From NCBI GenBank assembly GCA_009827225.1, contig WUAI01000012.1:488-64487 (forward strand): a DNA stretch of 64,000 nucleotides. Reading direction: 5' to 3'. Positions 2,377 through 48,776 of the stretch are shown piece by piece; within the stretch, counting starts at the first letter, position 1; each line of letters begins with the position of its first letter. The notes under the pieces are model-generated. The model was not told where the DNA came from. It ran no database searches and worked only from the letters and a program-made list of their open reading frames with translations. Source of the DNA: Flavobacteriaceae bacterium. GTDB taxonomy: Bacteria > Bacteroidota > Bacteroidia > Flavobacteriales > Flavobacteriaceae. The position numbers were made by a program, and so were the translations under genes.

Positions 2377-3017
2377 ACCTTATTTTTGAAATGATTTGCA
2401 TCTAAATTCTTACTCAATCCCAGATCATCGACTTCGTCCACCGTTTGTCCATGAACTATGGTCTTCGACTTGAATAGTACAGATTTCACTGTCAAAAGTA
2501 CTATTTTTAGATCTAGCAGAAACGATTGATGTTCCACATAATACACATCGTTTTTAAATCGTTCGCTAAACAGCATGGTATTTCGTCCTCTTACCTGGGC
2601 CAGCCCGGTAATGCCGGGACGAACCAGATGTCGCTTCTTTTGTTCTTCCGAATATAAGGGCAAATACTCCGGTAGCAAGGGCCGTGGGCCAACAAGGCTC
2701 ATATCTCCTTTTAGTACATTGATTAACTGAGGAAGCTCATCCAGCGATGTTTTTCTCACAATCTTACCGAAGCCGGTTAGCCGATCTGCGTCGGGTAGCA
2801 AAACCCCTTCCGAATCTTTTTTGTTATTCATGGTCCTGAACTTAATGATGGTAAATAATTTCTCATCTTTTCCGGGCCGCAACTGGTAAAAAAAAGGCTT
2901 ACCGGAATTAACCATCAATAGCCCGAGCCAGACCAATATGAATAACGGACTTGCAACTGCCAGGAAAAACAAGGCGAATAGAAAATCGGCTATGGGCTTT
3001 AAAAAGTTACGATACAC
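2373..3017 (-). CDS. Small PglC/WbaP-C-type undecaprenyl-phosphate sugar phosphotransferase (initiating transferase)
   Basis: Hallmark motif DELPQLINVLKGDMSLVGPRP and a single N-terminal hydrophobic helix. The start is GTG at 3017. Confidence 0.85.
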   Translation of the reverse strand: MYRNFLKPIADFLFALFFLAVASPLFILVWLGLLMVNSGKPFFYQLRPGKDEKLFTIIKFRTMNNKKDSEGVLLPDADRLTGFGKIVRKTSLDELPQLINVLKGDMSLVGPRPLLPEYLPLYSEEQKKRHLVRPGITGLAQVRGRNTMLFSERFKNDVYYVEHQSFLLDLKIVLLTVKSVLFKSKTIVHGQTVDEVDDLGLSKNLDANHFKNKV

Positions 3018-42828: not shown

Positions 42829-42895
42829 CACAATTTGTTGATAATTTTTCAATGTTTTAACAGGGTGAGGGATTGCAAAATCGCCTTGTTTTAGC

Positions 42896-42903
42896 TACTT
42901 TTG
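42896..42903 (+). promoter_or_regulatory. Candidate -7 box TACTTTTG
   Basis: Matches TAnnTTTG and lies 20 nt upstream of the ATG at 42924. A TTG sits about 20 nt further upstream (42873-42875). Confidence 0.35.
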
Positions 42904-42923
42904 CAGGGTCAATTCATCCTTCT

Positions 42924-45338
42924 ATGCAAACAAACCCACAGGCTAACAGCGACTTATCTTTTGAAGATTTTAAAGCAGAGGTAATCAACGATTACCGAAT
43001 TGCGGTGACGAGCCGTGAATGTAGTCTGCTGGGTCGACGCGAGGTCCTGACAGGGAAAGCGAAGTTTGGGATTTTCGGCGACGGAAAAGAAGTCCCGCAA
43101 TTAGCATGGGCAAAAGCCTTCAGAAATGGAGACTGGCGTAGTGGTTATTACCGGGATCAGACCTTTATGATGGCCATTGGTGAGCTTACGATCGAGCAAT
43201 TCTTTGCCGGACTTTATGCTCATACAGATATAAAAGCGGATCCCATGAGTGCCGGAAGGCAAATGGGAGGTCATTTTGGAACCCACAGTTTAAACGAAGA
43301 CGGTTCCTGGAAGAATTTAATGGCGCAAAAGAACAGTAGTGCCGACATCTCCCCTACTGCCGGACAAATGCCACGTCTCCTGGGATTGGCACAAGCTTCT
43401 AAAATTTTTCGTCATGTTGAAGAATTGAAAGGTCATACTCAATTTTCCAACAAGGGAAATGAAGTGGCCTGGGGAACCATCGGGAATGCCAGTACCAGTG
43501 AAGGGTTGTTTTGGGAAACCATCAATGCTGCCGGCGTGCTACAGGTTCCAATGGTAATGTGTATATGGGATGATGAATATGGAATTTCCGTTCATGCGAA
43601 ACATCAAACCACCAAAGAGAATATTTCAGAAATTCTTAGCGGGTTCCAAAGAAATGAGGAAGACGAAGGCTACGAAATTAAAGTAGTAAACGGATGGGAT
43701 TATGCCGAATTGGTACAGGTGTTTCAGGAAGCCGGTCATATTGCTCGTGAAGAACATGTTCCTTTATTGATCCATGTGAAAGAATTAACACAGCCACAAG
43801 GACATTCTACCAGCGGTTCCCACGAAAGATATAAAGATGCCGAACGTTTGGAATGGGAAAGATCGCACGACTGTAATCTTAAAATGCGACAATGGATGAT
43901 CGCAAATAACATTGCAGATGATGAAGAGCTTACGACAATTGAAAAGTCTATAAAGAAAGAGGTTCGTGAGGGCAAGAAGCGAGCCTGGGAAGCCTATCTT
44001 GCTCCACATCGCCAGGAACAAAAAGAAGCGATTACATTGCTCGGGAATCTGGCTGAGAATAGTCCGAATGGAACATTCATTAATAAGATAAAGTCGGAAC
44101 TAACTGAAAACACAGAACCGCTTAGAAGTGATGTCATTTCATTGGTTAGGAAAGCATTGCGCTATGTCGTTACGGAAAATACTTCGGAAAAGCGACAACT
44201 TCAGGATTGGGTGAATAACTTCTTCGAAATCGTTCAGCCCAAGTATAGTTCACATTTGTATTCAGAAGCAAGTAACAAGGCGACGACCATTTCAGAAATA
44301 AAAGCACAATACGATGAAGATGCACCTATGGTGGACGGACGGATTGTGTTACGGGATAATTTTGAATCCATTTTTGCCAACCGGCCGGATACCCTCGTAT
44401 TTGGAGAAGACAGTGGTGCCATTGGCGATGTGAACCAGGGCTTGGAAGGGCTTCAGGAGAAGTTTGGAGAATTAAGGGTTAGTGATACCGGTATTCGGGA
44501 AGCTACCATCTTAGGACAGGGAATCGGAATGGCCATGAGAGGCCTGCGACCTATCGCTGAAATACAATACCTCGATTATATCTTATACGCTTTACAGATC
44601 ATGAGTGATGATCTGGCGACCGTTCGCTACCGTACGAATGGTTTGCAAAAAGCTCCGCTTATCGTGAGGACTCGTGGTCATCGATTAGAAGGAATTTGGC
44701 ATAGTGGCTCCCAAATGGCAGCTTTAATCCATTTGCTACGCGGAATGTACATCTTGGTACCCAGGGATATGACAAAGGCAGCAGGTTTTTACAATACGCT
44801 GCTGGAAAGTGATGAACCAGCCGTTATTGTAGAATGCCTGAACGGATATCGATTAAAGGAAAAGTTACCCTCCAACCTTGGAGAACTTAGAACTCCGATC
44901 GGGGTGGTCGAAACGGTTAAAGAAGGTACTGATATTACTTTGGTGTCCTACGGAAGTACTCTTCGAATTGTACAACAGGCGGCCAAAGAATTGGCACAGG
45001 TAGGCGTTGATGCCGAAGTAATTGACGTACAAAGCCTCCTACCGCTGGATATCAACCACGACCTGGTAAAAAGTTTGCAGAAAACCAATCGTATCCTGGT
45101 GGTGGACGAAGACATGCCTGGAGGAACCGCAGCTTACATTCTTTCAAAAGTATTGGATACCCAAAATGGATACCAGTACCTGGACAGCAAACCGCAAACA
45201 TTGACGGCCCAATCGCATCGTCCTGCTTACGGAACTGATGGAGATTATTTTTCAAAACCTTCTGTGGAAGACGTTTTCGAGAAGGTCTATGAAATGATGC
45301 ATGAGTCAAATCCCACTGATTTTCCGCAATTGCGATAA
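42924..45338 (+). CDS. Fused alpha/beta E1 component of a 2-oxoacid dehydrogenase (TPP-dependent)
   Basis: The N-terminal half resembles E1-alpha (GNASTSEGLFWETINAAG). The C-terminal half resembles E1-beta/transketolase (GEDSGAIGDVNQG, TGIREATILGQGIGMAMRG). Confidence 0.85.
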   Translation: MQTNPQANSDLSFEDFKAEVINDYRIAVTSRECSLLGRREVLTGKAKFGIFGDGKEVPQLAWAKAFRNGDWRSGYYRDQTFMMAIGELTIEQFFAGLYAHTDIKADPMSAGRQMGGHFGTHSLNEDGSWKNLMAQKNSSADISPTAGQMPRLLGLAQASKIFRHVEELKGHTQFSNKGNEVAWGTIGNASTSEGLFWETINAAGVLQVPMVMCIWDDEYGISVHAKHQTTKENISEILSGFQRNEEDEGYEIKVVNGWDYAELVQVFQEAGHIAREEHVPLLIHVKELTQPQGHSTSGSHERYKDAERLEWERSHDCNLKMRQWMIANNIADDEELTTIEKSIKKEVREGKKRAWEAYLAPHRQEQKEAITLLGNLAENSPNGTFINKIKSELTENTEPLRSDVISLVRKALRYVVTENTSEKRQLQDWVNNFFEIVQPKYSSHLYSEASNKATTISEIKAQYDEDAPMVDGRIVLRDNFESIFANRPDTLVFGEDSGAIGDVNQGLEGLQEKFGELRVSDTGIREATILGQGIGMAMRGLRPIAEIQYLDYILYALQIMSDDLATVRYRTNGLQKAPLIVRTRGHRLEGIWHSGSQMAALIHLLRGMYILVPRDMTKAAGFYNTLLESDEPAVIVECLNGYRLKEKLPSNLGELRTPIGVVETVKEGTDITLVSYGSTLRIVQQAAKELAQVGVDAEVIDVQSLLPLDINHDLVKSLQKTNRILVVDEDMPGGTAAYILSKVLDTQNGYQYLDSKPQTLTAQSHRPAYGTDGDYFSKPSVEDVFEKVYEMMHESNPTDFPQLR

Positions 45339-45411
45339 TTTCTAAGGAATTTATTTGGAATCTTTGATTTTTTTACTGAATCTTTATACTCAGTTTTAAT
45401 AAAACAAGTCC

Positions 45412-45462
45412 ATGTTACAGTACAACTTAAATAATAACAATAATAATAACGGAATGCCGTAA
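45412..45462 (+). CDS. Putative Asn-rich leader peptide MLQYNLNNNNNNNGMP
   Basis: ATG TTA CAG TAC AAC TTA AAT AAT AAC AAT AAT AAT AAC GGA ATG CCG TAA. It lies 88 nt upstream of asnB and is followed by antiterminator/terminator helices. Confidence 0.65.
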   Translation: MLQYNLNNNNNNNGMP

Positions 45463-45501
45463 CAAGAACTTGTCGCGATATATGGCCCGTCAGGTTTTTG
45501 T
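45462..45501 (+). promoter_or_regulatory. Candidate antiterminator helix of the asnB leader
   Basis: 45462-45472 ACAAGAACTTG pairs with 45491-45501 CAGGTTTTTGT (11 bp, 2 G.U). It overlaps the terminator left arm at 45491-45495. Confidence 0.5.
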
Positions 45502-45518
45502 ACCTGGCGGGTTTTTTT
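45486..45518 (+). terminator. Intrinsic terminator (attenuator) upstream of asnB
   Basis: CCCGTCAGGT (45486-45495) pairs with ACCTGGCGGG (45502-45511): 10 bp with 1 G.U and a 6-nt loop. A T7 run follows at 45512-45518, 31 nt before the asnB ATG. Confidence 0.7.
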
Positions 45519-45549
45519 ATGAATCAATAATAAACCAAAATCAAAAATT

Positions 45550-47238
45550 ATGTGTGGAATTGTATGTGCCTTCGAACTAAAACAGCCCGCAGAAATCCTG
45601 CGCCCCCAATTATTAACCATGGCGAAATGTATTCGTCACCGAGGCCCCGACTGGAGTGGAATCTATGATCACCCTAAGGCTATCTTAGCCCACGAACGAC
45701 TGGCTATCGTGGATCCTACCTCTGGAAAGCAACCCTTGTATTCCGAAGATAAAAAGCTGATCCTTGCGGCTAATGGTGAAATTTACAATCATATGGAATT
45801 AAGAGCACAATTCGAAGGCAATTACAATTTCCAGACAAAAAGCGATTGTGAAGTGATACTGGCCTTGTACCGTGATAAAGGGGCAGACTTCCTCGATGAT
45901 CTCAATGGTATTTTTGGTTTTGCGATCTATGATGTTGAAAACGATTCTTATTTGATCGCCAGGGACCATATGGGGATCATTCCTCTCTATATGGGTTGGG
46001 ATCAAAACGGAACCTTCTATGTTGCCTCCGAATTGAAAGCTCTGGAGGGAGTATGTACTAAAATAGAATTATTCCCTCCCGGACATTATCTTCATAGTGA
46101 AGACGGAGAAGTGAAACGATGGTACACCCGGGATTGGATGGACTATGAGAATGTAAAGGACAACGAAACTTCCATTGAAGAGTTACACGATGCTTTGGAT
46201 GCTGCTGTTCACAGGCAGTTGATGAGTGATGTGCCATACGGAGTATTGCTTTCCGGCGGACTGGATTCTTCCATCACATCCGCTCTTGCCAAAAAATACG
46301 CCGATAAACGAATCGAGACCGGTGATAAAGAAGGTGCCTGGTGGCCACAACTCCACTCTTTCGCCATTGGTCTGGAAGGATCTCCTGATTTGGCCGCAGC
46401 TCAAAAAGTTGCCGATCATCTGGACACGGTTCATCATGAGATTCATTTTACCATCCAGGAGGGAATCGATGCCATTCGAGACGTAATTTATCATGTGGAA
46501 ACTTATGATATTACCACTATCAGGGCCTCTACCCCAATGTTCTTGCTGGCCAGGGCGATCAAAGCTATGGGAATAAAAATGGTACTCTCCGGCGAAGGCG
46601 CTGACGAGATTTTCGGTGGATACTTGTATTTCCATAAGGCTCCAACCGCCAAAGATTTCCACGAAGAAAATGTTCGTAAACTGGACAAGCTACATATGTA
46701 TGATTGTTTGAGGGCAAACAAATCTCTTGCTTCCTGGGGTATAGAAGGCCGGGTTCCATTTTTGGACAAGGAGTTTATGGATGTCGCTATGCGATTAAAC
46801 CCTAAAGACAAGATGATCATTGCCGGTCAAAGCGATCTAAAAGCCAGACAAGCTATGGAAAAATGGGTCCTTAGAGCTGCCTTCGGCGACTATTTACCTG
46901 AAAGTGTGGCATGGAGACAAAAAGAACAGTTCAGCGATGGTGTGGGATACAGTTGGATTGATACGTTGAAAGAAATGGTGGAACGGGAAGTGAGTGACGA
47001 ACAAATGGCAAATGCCCAGTACCGTTTCCCTATTCAAACGCCCACCAGTAAAGAAGAATTCTTCTACAGGTCAATCTTCGAAGAGCATTTCCCAAGTGAT
47101 GCAGCCGCATTAACGGTTCCTTCCATACCCAGCGTTGCATGCAGCAGTGCCGTAGCCCTGGAATGGGATGAAAGCTTCAAAAACATGAACGATCCCAGCG
47201 GTAGGGCCGTTGCGAATGTACATGAAGACGCATATTAA
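45550..47238 (+). CDS. asnB: Asparagine synthase (glutamine-hydrolysing)
   Basis: N-terminal MCGIV (Ntn Cys), PP-loop SGGLDSS, 562 aa. Confidence 0.95.
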   Translation: MCGIVCAFELKQPAEILRPQLLTMAKCIRHRGPDWSGIYDHPKAILAHERLAIVDPTSGKQPLYSEDKKLILAANGEIYNHMELRAQFEGNYNFQTKSDCEVILALYRDKGADFLDDLNGIFGFAIYDVENDSYLIARDHMGIIPLYMGWDQNGTFYVASELKALEGVCTKIELFPPGHYLHSEDGEVKRWYTRDWMDYENVKDNETSIEELHDALDAAVHRQLMSDVPYGVLLSGGLDSSITSALAKKYADKRIETGDKEGAWWPQLHSFAIGLEGSPDLAAAQKVADHLDTVHHEIHFTIQEGIDAIRDVIYHVETYDITTIRASTPMFLLARAIKAMGIKMVLSGEGADEIFGGYLYFHKAPTAKDFHEENVRKLDKLHMYDCLRANKSLASWGIEGRVPFLDKEFMDVAMRLNPKDKMIIAGQSDLKARQAMEKWVLRAAFGDYLPESVAWRQKEQFSDGVGYSWIDTLKEMVEREVSDEQMANAQYRFPIQTPTSKEEFFYRSIFEEHFPSDAAALTVPSIPSVACSSAVALEWDESFKNMNDPSGRAVANVHEDAY

Positions 47239-47354
47239 AAAGGAGGCACATGTAACTTGGCATTCTCATCTTACTTTATTTTAATTCTAAGTTTAGTTTT
47301 TGTTCTATCTTTAGACGATTTCTTGTTGAACAAAGCGGATTAAAATTGACCGAT

Positions 47355-48776
47355 ATGAAAAAAATTAGCTCTTTACTACTGCTGTTTACAGCCTTGTCTT
47401 ATGCACAAACTCCCTGCACCAACGGCTTTGCCGGTCAATACCCGTGTAATGGCTATAATCTCTTATCCCACATCACCGCAACCACTATGGGAGCTAGTGG
47501 TGGAAATGATACCTGGGGTTGGACCGATCCTCAAGATGGAAAAGAATATGCCATTGTAGGATTAGACAATGGAACCGCTTTCGTAGATATAACAGACCCT
47601 GTATCGCCCGTCTATCTCGGAAAACTACCTTCCGTAACTGGATCGGCTACAGCGAGAGATATAAAGACGTATAACAATTTTGCATTTGTAGTAAGTGATA
47701 ATAATGGGAATCACGGGATGCAAATATTCGATCTAACCCGATTGCGAAATGTTACCAATCCTCCTGAAACATTTACGGAGGACGTCCTTTATTCGGATTT
47801 CGAAAATGCGCATAATCTCGCTATTAATGAAGAAACAGGTTTTGCTTATGCCTGCAGAACCAACCTTTTTGGAGGAGGTGTTCATTTTATAAACATTCAG
47901 GACCCTTTGAATCCCATAAATTCTGGAGGAGTTAGTGGTGTTCTCACTCACGACGCCCAGATAGTTGTATATAATGGACCGGATACCGATTATACAGATC
48001 GGGAAATACTCTTTAGCTACAACGGATTCGATGGAGATGTCACAATCGTTGATGTTACTGACAAATCCAACCCACAAATTATTTCAAACTTTTCTTATAG
48101 CAATAACGAACATGCTCATCAGGGATGGTTGACTGAAGATCAGCAATATATTATTATGGGTGATGAATCGGACGAACTTAATTTAGGGCTGGATACACGG
48201 ACGATTATTTTTGATATTAGTGATCTTGACAATCCAACAGAGTCCTTTGTTTATTTCGGCCCAACAGCAGCGACCGATCACAATGGCTATGTTAAAGGAA
48301 ATACCTATTATCTGGCGAATTACAACGCAGGAATGCGGGTTATCGACATTTCCGAAATCGGCAGCGGAACGTTTAACGAGACCGGGTTTTTCGATGTGTA
48401 TCCGGACAATAATGCGTCAGGATTTAACGGTGCCTGGAGCGTCTATCCTTATTTTGCCAGTGGCAATCTCATCATTTCTTCCCGTGGGAGTGATGGTGGT
48501 TTATTTGTAGTGGCGGAGAGTTTATTGGAGACCACCTCATTCGAAGATTCGATTACTTTTGAGATAATACCTAATCCGTCAAACGAACTAATTAACATTC
48601 AATTGAGTCAAAGTGTTCAGCTGTTATCAGCCGATATTTATGATAATCTTGGTCGACAGGTTTTTCAAAGTAAGGATTCAACTTCTATCAATATTTCATC
48701 TTTGAATAACGGAATGTACTTTTTAAAGATCGTCACCGACCAAGGGAGCTTTACCAAGCGACTCATCAAAATTTGA
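47355..48776 (+). CDS. Choice-of-anchor B / LVIVD-repeat beta-propeller protein with T9SS C-terminal sorting domain
   Basis: Signal peptide, TPCTNGFAGQYPCNGYNLLSHI, and a CTD tail (IIPNPSNELINIQL...GMYFLKIVTDQG). Confidence 0.65.
   Translation: MKKISSLLLLFTALSYAQTPCTNGFAGQYPCNGYNLLSHITATTMGASGGNDTWGWTDPQDGKEYAIVGLDNGTAFVDITDPVSPVYLGKLPSVTGSATARDIKTYNNFAFVVSDNNGNHGMQIFDLTRLRNVTNPPETFTEDVLYSDFENAHNLAINEETGFAYACRTNLFGGGVHFINIQDPLNPINSGGVSGVLTHDAQIVVYNGPDTDYTDREILFSYNGFDGDVTIVDVTDKSNPQIISNFSYSNNEHAHQGWLTEDQQYIIMGDESDELNLGLDTRTIIFDISDLDNPTESFVYFGPTAATDHNGYVKGNTYYLANYNAGMRVIDISEIGSGTFNETGFFDVYPDNNASGFNGAWSVYPYFASGNLIISSRGSDGGLFVVAESLLETTSFEDSITFEIIPNPSNELINIQLSQSVQLLSADIYDNLGRQVFQSKDSTSINISSLNNGMYFLKIVTDQGSFTKRLIKI

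Follow-up and report, generated by a model that had tools for sequence, protein, structure and literature searches.

What regulates the asparagine synthetase gene asnB in a Flavobacteriaceae bacterium that carries, directly upstream of this gene, a short open reading frame (ORF) rich in Asn codons followed by an intrinsic terminator? The gene lies in a 64-kb stretch of DNA (hereafter the window, whose numbering is used throughout), and the leader region is contained in the 211-nt gap (45339-45549) that separates asnB from an upstream ORF ending at 45338. A preliminary description of the same DNA had proposed that this gap holds an attenuator that senses asparagine. We followed up the proposal by computation, using sequence, folding and comparative evidence, and the gene behind the gap is a genuine asnB. 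The gap very probably contains a ribosome-mediated leader-peptide transcription attenuator that would sense charged tRNA-Asn and control asnB. A clade-restricted attenuator, representing a new amino-acid specificity of a well-known kind of regulator, is the interpretation that is well supported by the comparisons described below.

The asparagine-rich leader ORF

The leader reads ATG TTA CAG TAC AAC TTA AAT AAT AAC AAT AAT AAT AAC GGA ATG CCG and ends with a TAA stop codon at 45460-45462. A direct check of the sequence thus agreed with the preliminary description, which had counted eight Asn among the 16 codons, seven of them consecutive. When both strands of the 64-kb window were scanned for runs of at least four AAY codons, the leader run was the sole one, and Asn accounts for 5.4% of the codons in the long ORFs of the window. 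A window scan for other short ORFs with at least four identical residues in a row returned only matches resembling alternative frames of genes, as judged by their appearance and not against annotated positions.

Relatives of the leader were gathered in two ways. Using the AsnB protein as a query against one genome per species, 80 loci (L001-L080) were obtained. The eight closest, with 83-89% AsnB identity, belong to Ulvibacter, two Patiriisocius, two Aequorivita, Luteirhabdus and two metagenome-assembled genomes (MAGs). In all eight, asnB is preceded by an ORF that starts with ATG, is 13-19 codons long and includes 3-10 consecutive Asn residues, examples being MLQNLNYNFNNNNNGTP, MLYFGINNNNNNNNAQT, MSFISLNNNNNELP and MIRFRLNNNNNNNNNNELP. 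On the 3' side of each ORF, the sequence TAR-CA-NN-AACTTGT is followed by a terminator of the form CCCGTCARGTTT...YTTGRCGGG and a T tract. Metagenomes were searched with the pattern CGTARCANNAACTTGT-N(14-22)-CARGTTT, which represents the stop-codon region and part of the terminator 5' side (segments 2 and 3 below) and includes no Asn codons, terminator 3' arm, T tract or asnB. Among the 49 matches, 43 had an in-frame Asn-run ORF ending at the stop codon of the pattern together with a complete terminator; asnB begins 79-224 nt after the leader stop in 41 of these 43 copies, and the other two reach contig ends. The six leaderless matches had neither a terminator nor asnB. Together with the window, these searches yielded 52 copies, which collapse to 45 distinct sequences.

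The 45 distinct leaders are 13-21 amino acids long and contain 4-11 Asn each. Their consecutive runs vary from 3 to 10 codons, and differences in length between copies always amount to whole codons. Within the run region, AAT was counted 210 times, AAC 74 times and other codons 10 times, so that the synonymous AAC makes up 74 of the 84 non-AAT codons (88%). The distance between the end of the run and the stop codon is exactly three codons in 42 of the 45 leaders, i.e., the last codon of the run is the fourth before the stop, and 49-55 nt lie between the stop codon and the T tract in every sequence. Judged from these patterns, the leader ORF behaves like a coding sequence. The final sense codon (45457-45459 in the window) is always CCG (Pro) or ACG (Thr) across the family. 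A special preference for AAT in the run, an idea related to queuosine, was dropped, as AAT makes up 71% of run-region codons versus 64% of the Asn codons in the long ORFs of the window.

Three mutually exclusive helices and the proposed switch

The terminator was recovered exactly as the preliminary description had given it. Residues 45486-45495 (CCCGTCAGGT) pair with 45502-45511 (ACCTGGCGGG), with one G.U pair and a 6-nt loop, TTTTGT, and 31 nt separate the T7 tract from the asnB ATG (45550); a pattern scan extended the stem to 12 pairs (45484-45513). The hairpin has a predicted energy of -20.9 kcal/mol in the window (RNAfold) and of -14 to -24 kcal/mol across the members, with a mean of -19.3. 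Its positions are 99.3% paired, and compensatory changes were observed in four of the 10 pairs, for example CAAG/CTTG versus CAGG/CCTG and CCCG/CGGG versus CCTG/CAGG; none of 500 shuffles reached the observed score. The covariation result was repeated when the nine sequences gathered through AsnB (the window and the eight genomes) were analyzed alone. The region 45405-45525, whose folding had been suggested in the preliminary description, folds to -30.9 kcal/mol with z = -3.1 relative to dinucleotide shuffles.

An alternative helix of 11 bp, including two G.U pairs, forms between 45462-45472 (ACAAGAACTTG) and 45491-45501 (CAGGTTTTTGT). As had been claimed, it is mutually exclusive with the terminator, and the corresponding conformer in the window has a predicted energy of -13.1 kcal/mol (RNAfold). 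In the nine AsnB-gathered sequences, the AACTTGT of segment 2 is invariant and this antiterminator is 95% paired. Within its core, AACTTG paired with CARGTT, the segment-2 side does not vary and the A/G change in segment 3 is absorbed by a U.G pair. The evidence for covariation concerns two other positions: N1, the first N of CANNAACTTG, and X1, the base that follows CARGTTT. Among the 45 sequences, the N1-X1 combinations are A-T in 23, G-C in 15, G.T in five and a mismatch in two, and X1 is C solely where N1 is G (15/15). Member L107 represents a second, independent G-C within the A-T subfamily, and L097 and L120 carry G.T intermediates. Because X1 is located within the terminator loop, this covariation is attributable to the antiterminator alone. 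Compensatory change, which the preliminary description had put forward as a test of both helices, was therefore found in each.

The preliminary description had envisaged a switch between these two structures. Both are present, but a third helix had been missed, in which the region of the leader start codon (segment 1) pairs with that of the stop codon (segment 2). The 1:2 duplex has a mean energy of about -10.4 to -10.7 kcal/mol, whereas shuffling of segment 1 gives -3.0 (z about -4.9; 43 of 45 members <=0.03). The first nucleotide of codon 2 and the third nucleotide of the stop codon form T-A in 31 sequences, C-G in five, T.G in six and a mismatch in three, with no instance of C-A; TTA is changed to CTA at codon 2 solely in leaders with a TAG stop (5/5), in at least three sublineages. 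The G of the final sense codon also pairs in this helix. On this sequence evidence, helices 1:2 (anti-antiterminator), 2:3 (antiterminator) and 3:4 (terminator) constitute the full, classical three-helix layout of an attenuator, in which the helices are mutually exclusive.

The proposed switch would operate as follows. Transcription would begin on the 5' side of the leader and a ribosome would start on the 16-codon ORF. In toeprinting, the 3' edge of the ribosome lies about 15 nt from the first base in the P site, which equals about 12 nt from the first base in the A site. When Asn-tRNA is plentiful, the ribosome would pass the Asn codons and reach the stop codon; with the stop in the A site, it would cover the stretch from stop +0 to about +12, including segment 2 (CANNAACTTG, stop +3 to +12). 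With segment 2 covered, the 3:4 terminator would fold and RNA polymerase would halt on reaching the T tract, some 30 nt short of asnB. When Asn-tRNA is scarce, the ribosome would stall in the run, and with its A site on the last Asn codon (stop -12) it would reach approximately to the stop codon. Since the last Asn codon is the fourth before the stop, even the most 3' stall would leave segment 2 exposed. The exposed segment 2 would then capture the emerging terminator 5' arm and loop, blocking the terminator and allowing the polymerase to read into asnB. If the ribosome is absent or released, segment 1 would pair with segment 2, which frees segment 3 for the terminator; hence the default state would be off. 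The placement of the stop and regulatory codons thus fits, by geometric inference, masking of segment 2 by a terminating but not by a stalled ribosome. The occlusion logic of the preliminary description is consistent with the three-codon spacing between run and stop, which was unknown to it. All features by which leader-peptide attenuators are recognized at the sequence level were found here: an ORF with cognate codons, a terminator, an antiterminator, a 1:2 helix, the codon placement and a downstream gene for the same amino acid. The coordinates of these features are collected in Table 1.

Table 1. Features of the asnB leader region, in window coordinates.
Feature	Position	Strand	Basis or remark
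Promoter-like region, candidate	45330-45390	+	Placement A: TTTG 45354-45357, 21-nt spacer, -7-like box AATCTTTA 45379-45386; placement B: TTG 45330-45332 and TTTATTTG 45350-45357
Segment 1, CAAGTCCATGTTAC, spans the leader start codon	45405-45418	+	Pairs with segment 2 (45459-45472) in the RNAfold minimum free energy structure
Leader ORF, 16 codons, MLQYNLNNNNNNNGMP and stop	45412-45462	+	Direct sequence check; in-frame ATG-to-stop ORF with Asn run in 52/52 family copies
Regulatory Asn run, 7 codons	45430-45450	+	Extra Asn codon at 45424-45426; total of 8 Asn in 16 codons
Segment 2, GTAACAAGAACTTG, overlaps the stop codon	45459-45472	+	Pairs with segment 1 or segment 3
Segment 3, terminator 5' arm (45484-45495) and loop (45496-45501)	45484-45501	+	45491-45501 doubles as the antiterminator 3' strand
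Segment 4, terminator 3' arm (45502-45513), T7 tract 45512-45518	45502-45518	+	Pattern scan, covariation
asnB, glutamine-hydrolysing asparagine synthase B, regulated gene	45550-47238	+	NCBIfam equivalog NF006949, 926 bits (cutoff 499), full length

The conserved end of the leader raises the question of whether the peptide itself matters. Pro-stop is a slow-termination context in E. coli, and the Pro-stop junction might slow termination here and keep the ribosome over segment 2. The leader could also act through its nascent peptide or free asparagine, in a manner similar to TnaC and tryptophan, with a ligand-dependent stall at Pro/Thr-stop or in poly-Asn. The invariable CCG or ACG at the end of the ORF would fit this, as would the fact that the poly-Asn tract is the sole conserved part of the peptide. 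We nevertheless regard such a mechanism as very unlikely. Leaders differ freely in how many Asn residues they contain (4-11) and in the residues on either side, contrary to what would be expected of a specific interaction with the exit tunnel, and constraints on the RNA can explain the conservation of CCG/ACG, as their G is paired in helix 1:2. Moreover, a ribosome halted at the stop codon would mask segment 2 and promote termination, so that induction at low Asn would then come about only via codon supply.

Genomic context and distribution

The occurrence of the element among relatives is narrow. A degenerate ninth copy was identified in L009 (2831-2930), a MAG labelled Flavobacterium sp. NORP82. 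Its leader, MFTNNLNTNYKP, has four scattered Asn codons, while segment 2 (CAAAAACTTGT) and the terminator are intact, and a covariance model of the family scored it at 61 bits (E = 5e-8). This copy may be in decay or may have low sensitivity. Beyond L009, the same model, run on L009-L080 and the whole window, returned unrelated terminators only, with nothing convincing in L010-L080. Among the 67 loci of L010-L080 with enough upstream sequence, 63 showed nothing resembling a terminator hairpin in the 300 nt that precede asnB. The lack of the element in L010-L080 indicates that it is specific to one clade. The Asn-run ORF that the preliminary description had proposed to look for upstream of asnB in related Flavobacteriia is thus present in the nearest genera and in the 43 metagenome contigs, but not in Flavobacteriia in general.

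When small ORFs rich in Asn were sought, with ATG, GTG or TTG allowed as start codon, one further candidate emerged. This was a TTG-initiated ORF with six Asn, MINNYININNNSYELK, at 2877-2927 of L028, a Eudoraea MAG. It was rejected as a chance occurrence in AT-rich DNA, being without a terminator and not conserved in the sister MAG L077.

At about 2960-3000 in the leaderless loci L011, L028 and L077, a TAnnTTTG-like box (CATCTTTG or CATATTTG) was observed 25-30 nt ahead of the start codon of asnB. Its position suggests that asnB has a plain promoter and a short 5' untranslated region in leaderless relatives, in which case the attenuator would have been inserted, in one clade, between the promoter and asnB. 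Within the clade, G+C-rich, hairpin-forming inserts such as CCCCCTTTCAAAGGGGG were seen between the terminator and asnB in L002 (2890-2990), L005 (2845-2900) and L007 (2870-2975). These inserts look like small repeat elements and explain the variable 79-224 nt spacing.

The gene preceding the leader is co-directional in all loci, and four unrelated genes occupy this position: an E1 dehydrogenase gene in 16 loci including the window, one for a secreted protein of ~180 amino acids in 23, a Skp-like gene in two and a gene for a 516-amino-acid protein in one. Since the unit remains in front of asnB whichever of these four genes precedes it, it belongs with asnB. A terminator-like hairpin between the upstream gene and the leader was found in nine of 44 loci, and most of these were weak. 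In the window, the upstream gene (42873-45338) encodes an 821-amino-acid fusion of E1 alpha-like and E1 beta-like 2-oxoacid dehydrogenase domains, and it has no intrinsic terminator of its own ahead of the leader.

The hairpin might accordingly do no more than terminate the upstream co-directional gene, with the Asn ORF being a chance reading of an (AAT)n microsatellite in an AT-rich spacer. The orientation of the upstream genes and the rarity of another terminator before the leader speak for it, as does the variation of the run between 3 and 10 codons, given that AAT repeats change length by slippage. This explanation is, however, extremely improbable in view of the comparative data. The unit stays with asnB while the upstream gene changes, the ATG and the open frame are retained in all 52 copies with the stop codon at a constant spacing (49-55 nt) from the terminator, and 88% of the variant codons in the run are synonymous. 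A plain terminator would have no need of a conserved segment 2 that covaries with a nucleotide of the terminator loop, and the leaderless relatives also lack the hairpin before asnB (63/67). Read-through from upstream may occur, and the hairpin may have a dual role as terminator of the upstream gene; neither conflicts with attenuation.

With respect to the promoter, the flavobacterial sigma-A -7 consensus is TAnnTTTG (PMC9723704). Across the family, TTTG(G) is located 17-22 nt upstream of a TAnnTT[AT]G-like box, and for 35 of the 45 members the first base of this box lies 31-40 nt ahead of the leader start codon; the mean best score was 8.4 of 10, compared with 7.0 (sd 0.7) in shuffles. The arrangement is similar to the flavobacterial sigma-A promoter and lends a putative promoter moderate support. 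A scan for sigma-70 promoters upstream of the leader found nothing, a result that is expected because Bacteroidota use other promoter motifs.

On the other side of the leader, the motif (ACT)AACCAAA is situated on the 3' side of the terminator, ~15-25 nt 5' of the asnB start (window 45523-45549), and is kept in L001, L002, L005, L007 and L008. The motif might serve in translation initiation or mark a site of processing. The asnB product begins with MCGIV, so that the N-terminal Cys nucleophile is present. The next gene (47346-48776) encodes a 'choice-of-anchor B' protein with a C-terminal sorting domain of the type IX secretion system (T9SS), which confirms a Bacteroidota host; it has no functional link to asparagine synthesis.

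The identity of the asnB product bears on another explanation. Lasso-peptide cyclases are homologues of asparagine synthetase, and the short ORF could be imagined as a lasso-peptide-like precursor that is processed by the downstream asparagine-synthetase-like enzyme. We give this practically no credence. The enzyme does match the lasso cyclase model NF033535, but weakly, at 147 bits, whereas the cutoff of that model is far above this (525 bits) and the AsnB equivalog is matched at 926 bits over the full length. No leader protease or transporter gene is nearby, the following gene being the one for the T9SS-sorted protein, and an intrinsic terminator lies between the ORF and the enzyme gene. The peptide, at 13-21 amino acids, is mostly Asn and variable in length.

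Several points weigh against attenuation and have to be set beside the evidence in its favour. The dedicated promoter upstream of the leader, the transcription start, translation of the leader, the geometry of the ribosome and the Asn response are inferred from sequence. The promoter match in the window is modest, 8 of 10, and two placements are tied. As the upstream genes are mostly without a terminator of their own, the hairpin may also end upstream transcripts. Since the search pattern itself dictated the cores of segments 2 and 3 in the metagenome copies, conservation of these cores is informative in the nine AsnB-gathered sequences only, and the covariation counts for all helices are uncorrected for phylogeny. 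The antiterminator, with a mean of -8.6 kcal/mol, is far weaker than the terminator (mean -19.3 kcal/mol), and antitermination would consequently have to be kinetic, as in the classical systems. Helix 1:2 is the least secure of the three: RNAalifold recovered the terminator but not this helix from a MAFFT alignment of the 45 sequences. The miss is due to the spacing between CAAGT and the ATG, which varies by 1-4 nt, and the helix was for this reason judged by duplex energies and position-specific counts. Finally, the Asn codons sit in the loop between segments 1 and 2, outside segment 1, and a ribosome stalled late in the run would therefore not mask segment 1 itself.

Relation to known regulatory systems

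A comparison of 45000-45900 with all 4227 models of Rfam 15, at E values up to 10, returned noise only (CyaR, NsiR1 and others), far below gathering scores. The Rfam leader families, Bacteroid-trp (RF01692) and T-box had no match in this region. These results bear on the possibility that the terminator and antiterminator form a real switch, but one set by a protein, a small RNA or a metabolite, the ORF being incidental or serving translational coupling. In favour of this possibility, the link of the switch to translation is drawn from sequence, and helix 1:2 would occlude the start codon of the leader. Such a switch is still highly improbable: Rfam 15 shows no riboswitch or T-box at the locus, the RNA between the helices is of low complexity and variable length and would be an unlikely ligand pocket, and the conserved features are those that a ribosome-based sensor needs, namely the identity of the Asn codons, the frame and the three-codon spacing to the stop. 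The proposed leader-peptide attenuator is compared below with systems that sense amino acids by similar or by different means.

Families of leader-peptide attenuators are known for Trp, His, Leu, Thr, Phe and Ile/Val, and for Cys in actinobacteria. The asnB leader is similar to the enterobacterial trpL, hisL, leuL, thrL, pheL and ilv leaders (Rfam Trp_leader, His_leader, Leu_leader and Thr_leader) in having a short ORF rich in codons for the amino acid of the downstream gene. It also shares with them the three mutually exclusive helices, of which 3:4 is an intrinsic terminator, and a stop codon placed such that segment 2 would be covered. The run of seven identical codons in hisL can be likened to the Asn run described here. 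The asnB leader departs from these systems in its amino acid, asparagine, and in having asnB as its single target gene. The host also differs, since Bacteroidota, unlike enterobacteria, have no Shine-Dalgarno-based initiation and use a different sigma-A promoter (PMC9723704). Unlike in the classical leaders, the regulatory codons are located in the loop between segments 1 and 2 and not in segment 1, and segments 1 and 2 overlap the start and stop codon, respectively.

In the Bacteroidota, the Bacteroid-trp motif has been read as a Trp leader-peptide attenuator. It was described as a cis-regulatory RNA of Bacteroidetes upstream of amino-acid biosynthesis genes (RF01692; Weinberg et al., 2010, PMC2864571). 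This motif provides a precedent for the mechanism in the phylum, though its amino acid and regulated genes differ from those of the Asn leader. In Flavobacterium psychrophilum, transcriptome data gave 'strong clues' that leader-peptide attenuation operates before amino-acid biosynthesis operons (PMC9723704). With regard to asparagine, T-box leaders with an Asn specifier occur in Firmicutes, at asnS and associated operons, and T-boxes were absent from all seven Bacteroidetes/Chlorobi genomes surveyed (PMC2494555). The Asn T-box is alike in sensing the charging of tRNA-Asn and in choosing between terminator and antiterminator upstream of Asn-related genes; it differs in binding uncharged tRNA directly, requiring neither a ribosome nor a leader ORF. 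In E. coli, AsnC controls asnA as a DNA-binding protein that senses free Asn at the promoter. This is a further case in which expression of an asparagine synthetase responds to asparagine, but it involves no leader RNA or ribosome, and the gene is asnA rather than asnB.

No asparagine leader was found in Rfam 15 or in the full-text literature searched, a coverage outside which the attenuator survey of Lopatovskaya et al. (2010) lies; the preliminary description had likewise known of no catalogued Asn leader family. We tentatively propose, as a prospect not far short of even, that this is the first Asn-specific leader-peptide attenuator to be described, and that it arose in a single marine Flavobacteriaceae clade in which the number of sensor codons (3-10) shifts by triplet slippage of (AAT)n. 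Such slippage could allow rapid evolutionary tuning of how sensitively the switch responds to Asn limitation. By analogy with rnTrpL/peTrpL of Sinorhizobium, which act in trans (PMC7968998), it is a possibility that the terminated leader RNA or the poly-Asn peptide does so as well. The mechanism of attenuation itself is textbook and not new, and we consider the finding to be moderately interesting rather than surprising.

If the attenuator is real, Asn would join the amino acids that bacteria monitor by ribosome stalling. The asnB gene of Bacteroidota would gain a defined mode of regulation, in a phylum that is without T-boxes and in which the regulation of amino-acid biosynthesis has been little studied. 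The 52 copies and the three covarying helices make up a compact, well-conserved family that is sufficient to support an Rfam entry, the annotation of genomes and experimental work. With its narrow distribution and variable run length, the family would offer a convenient case for following the birth and tuning of an attenuator.

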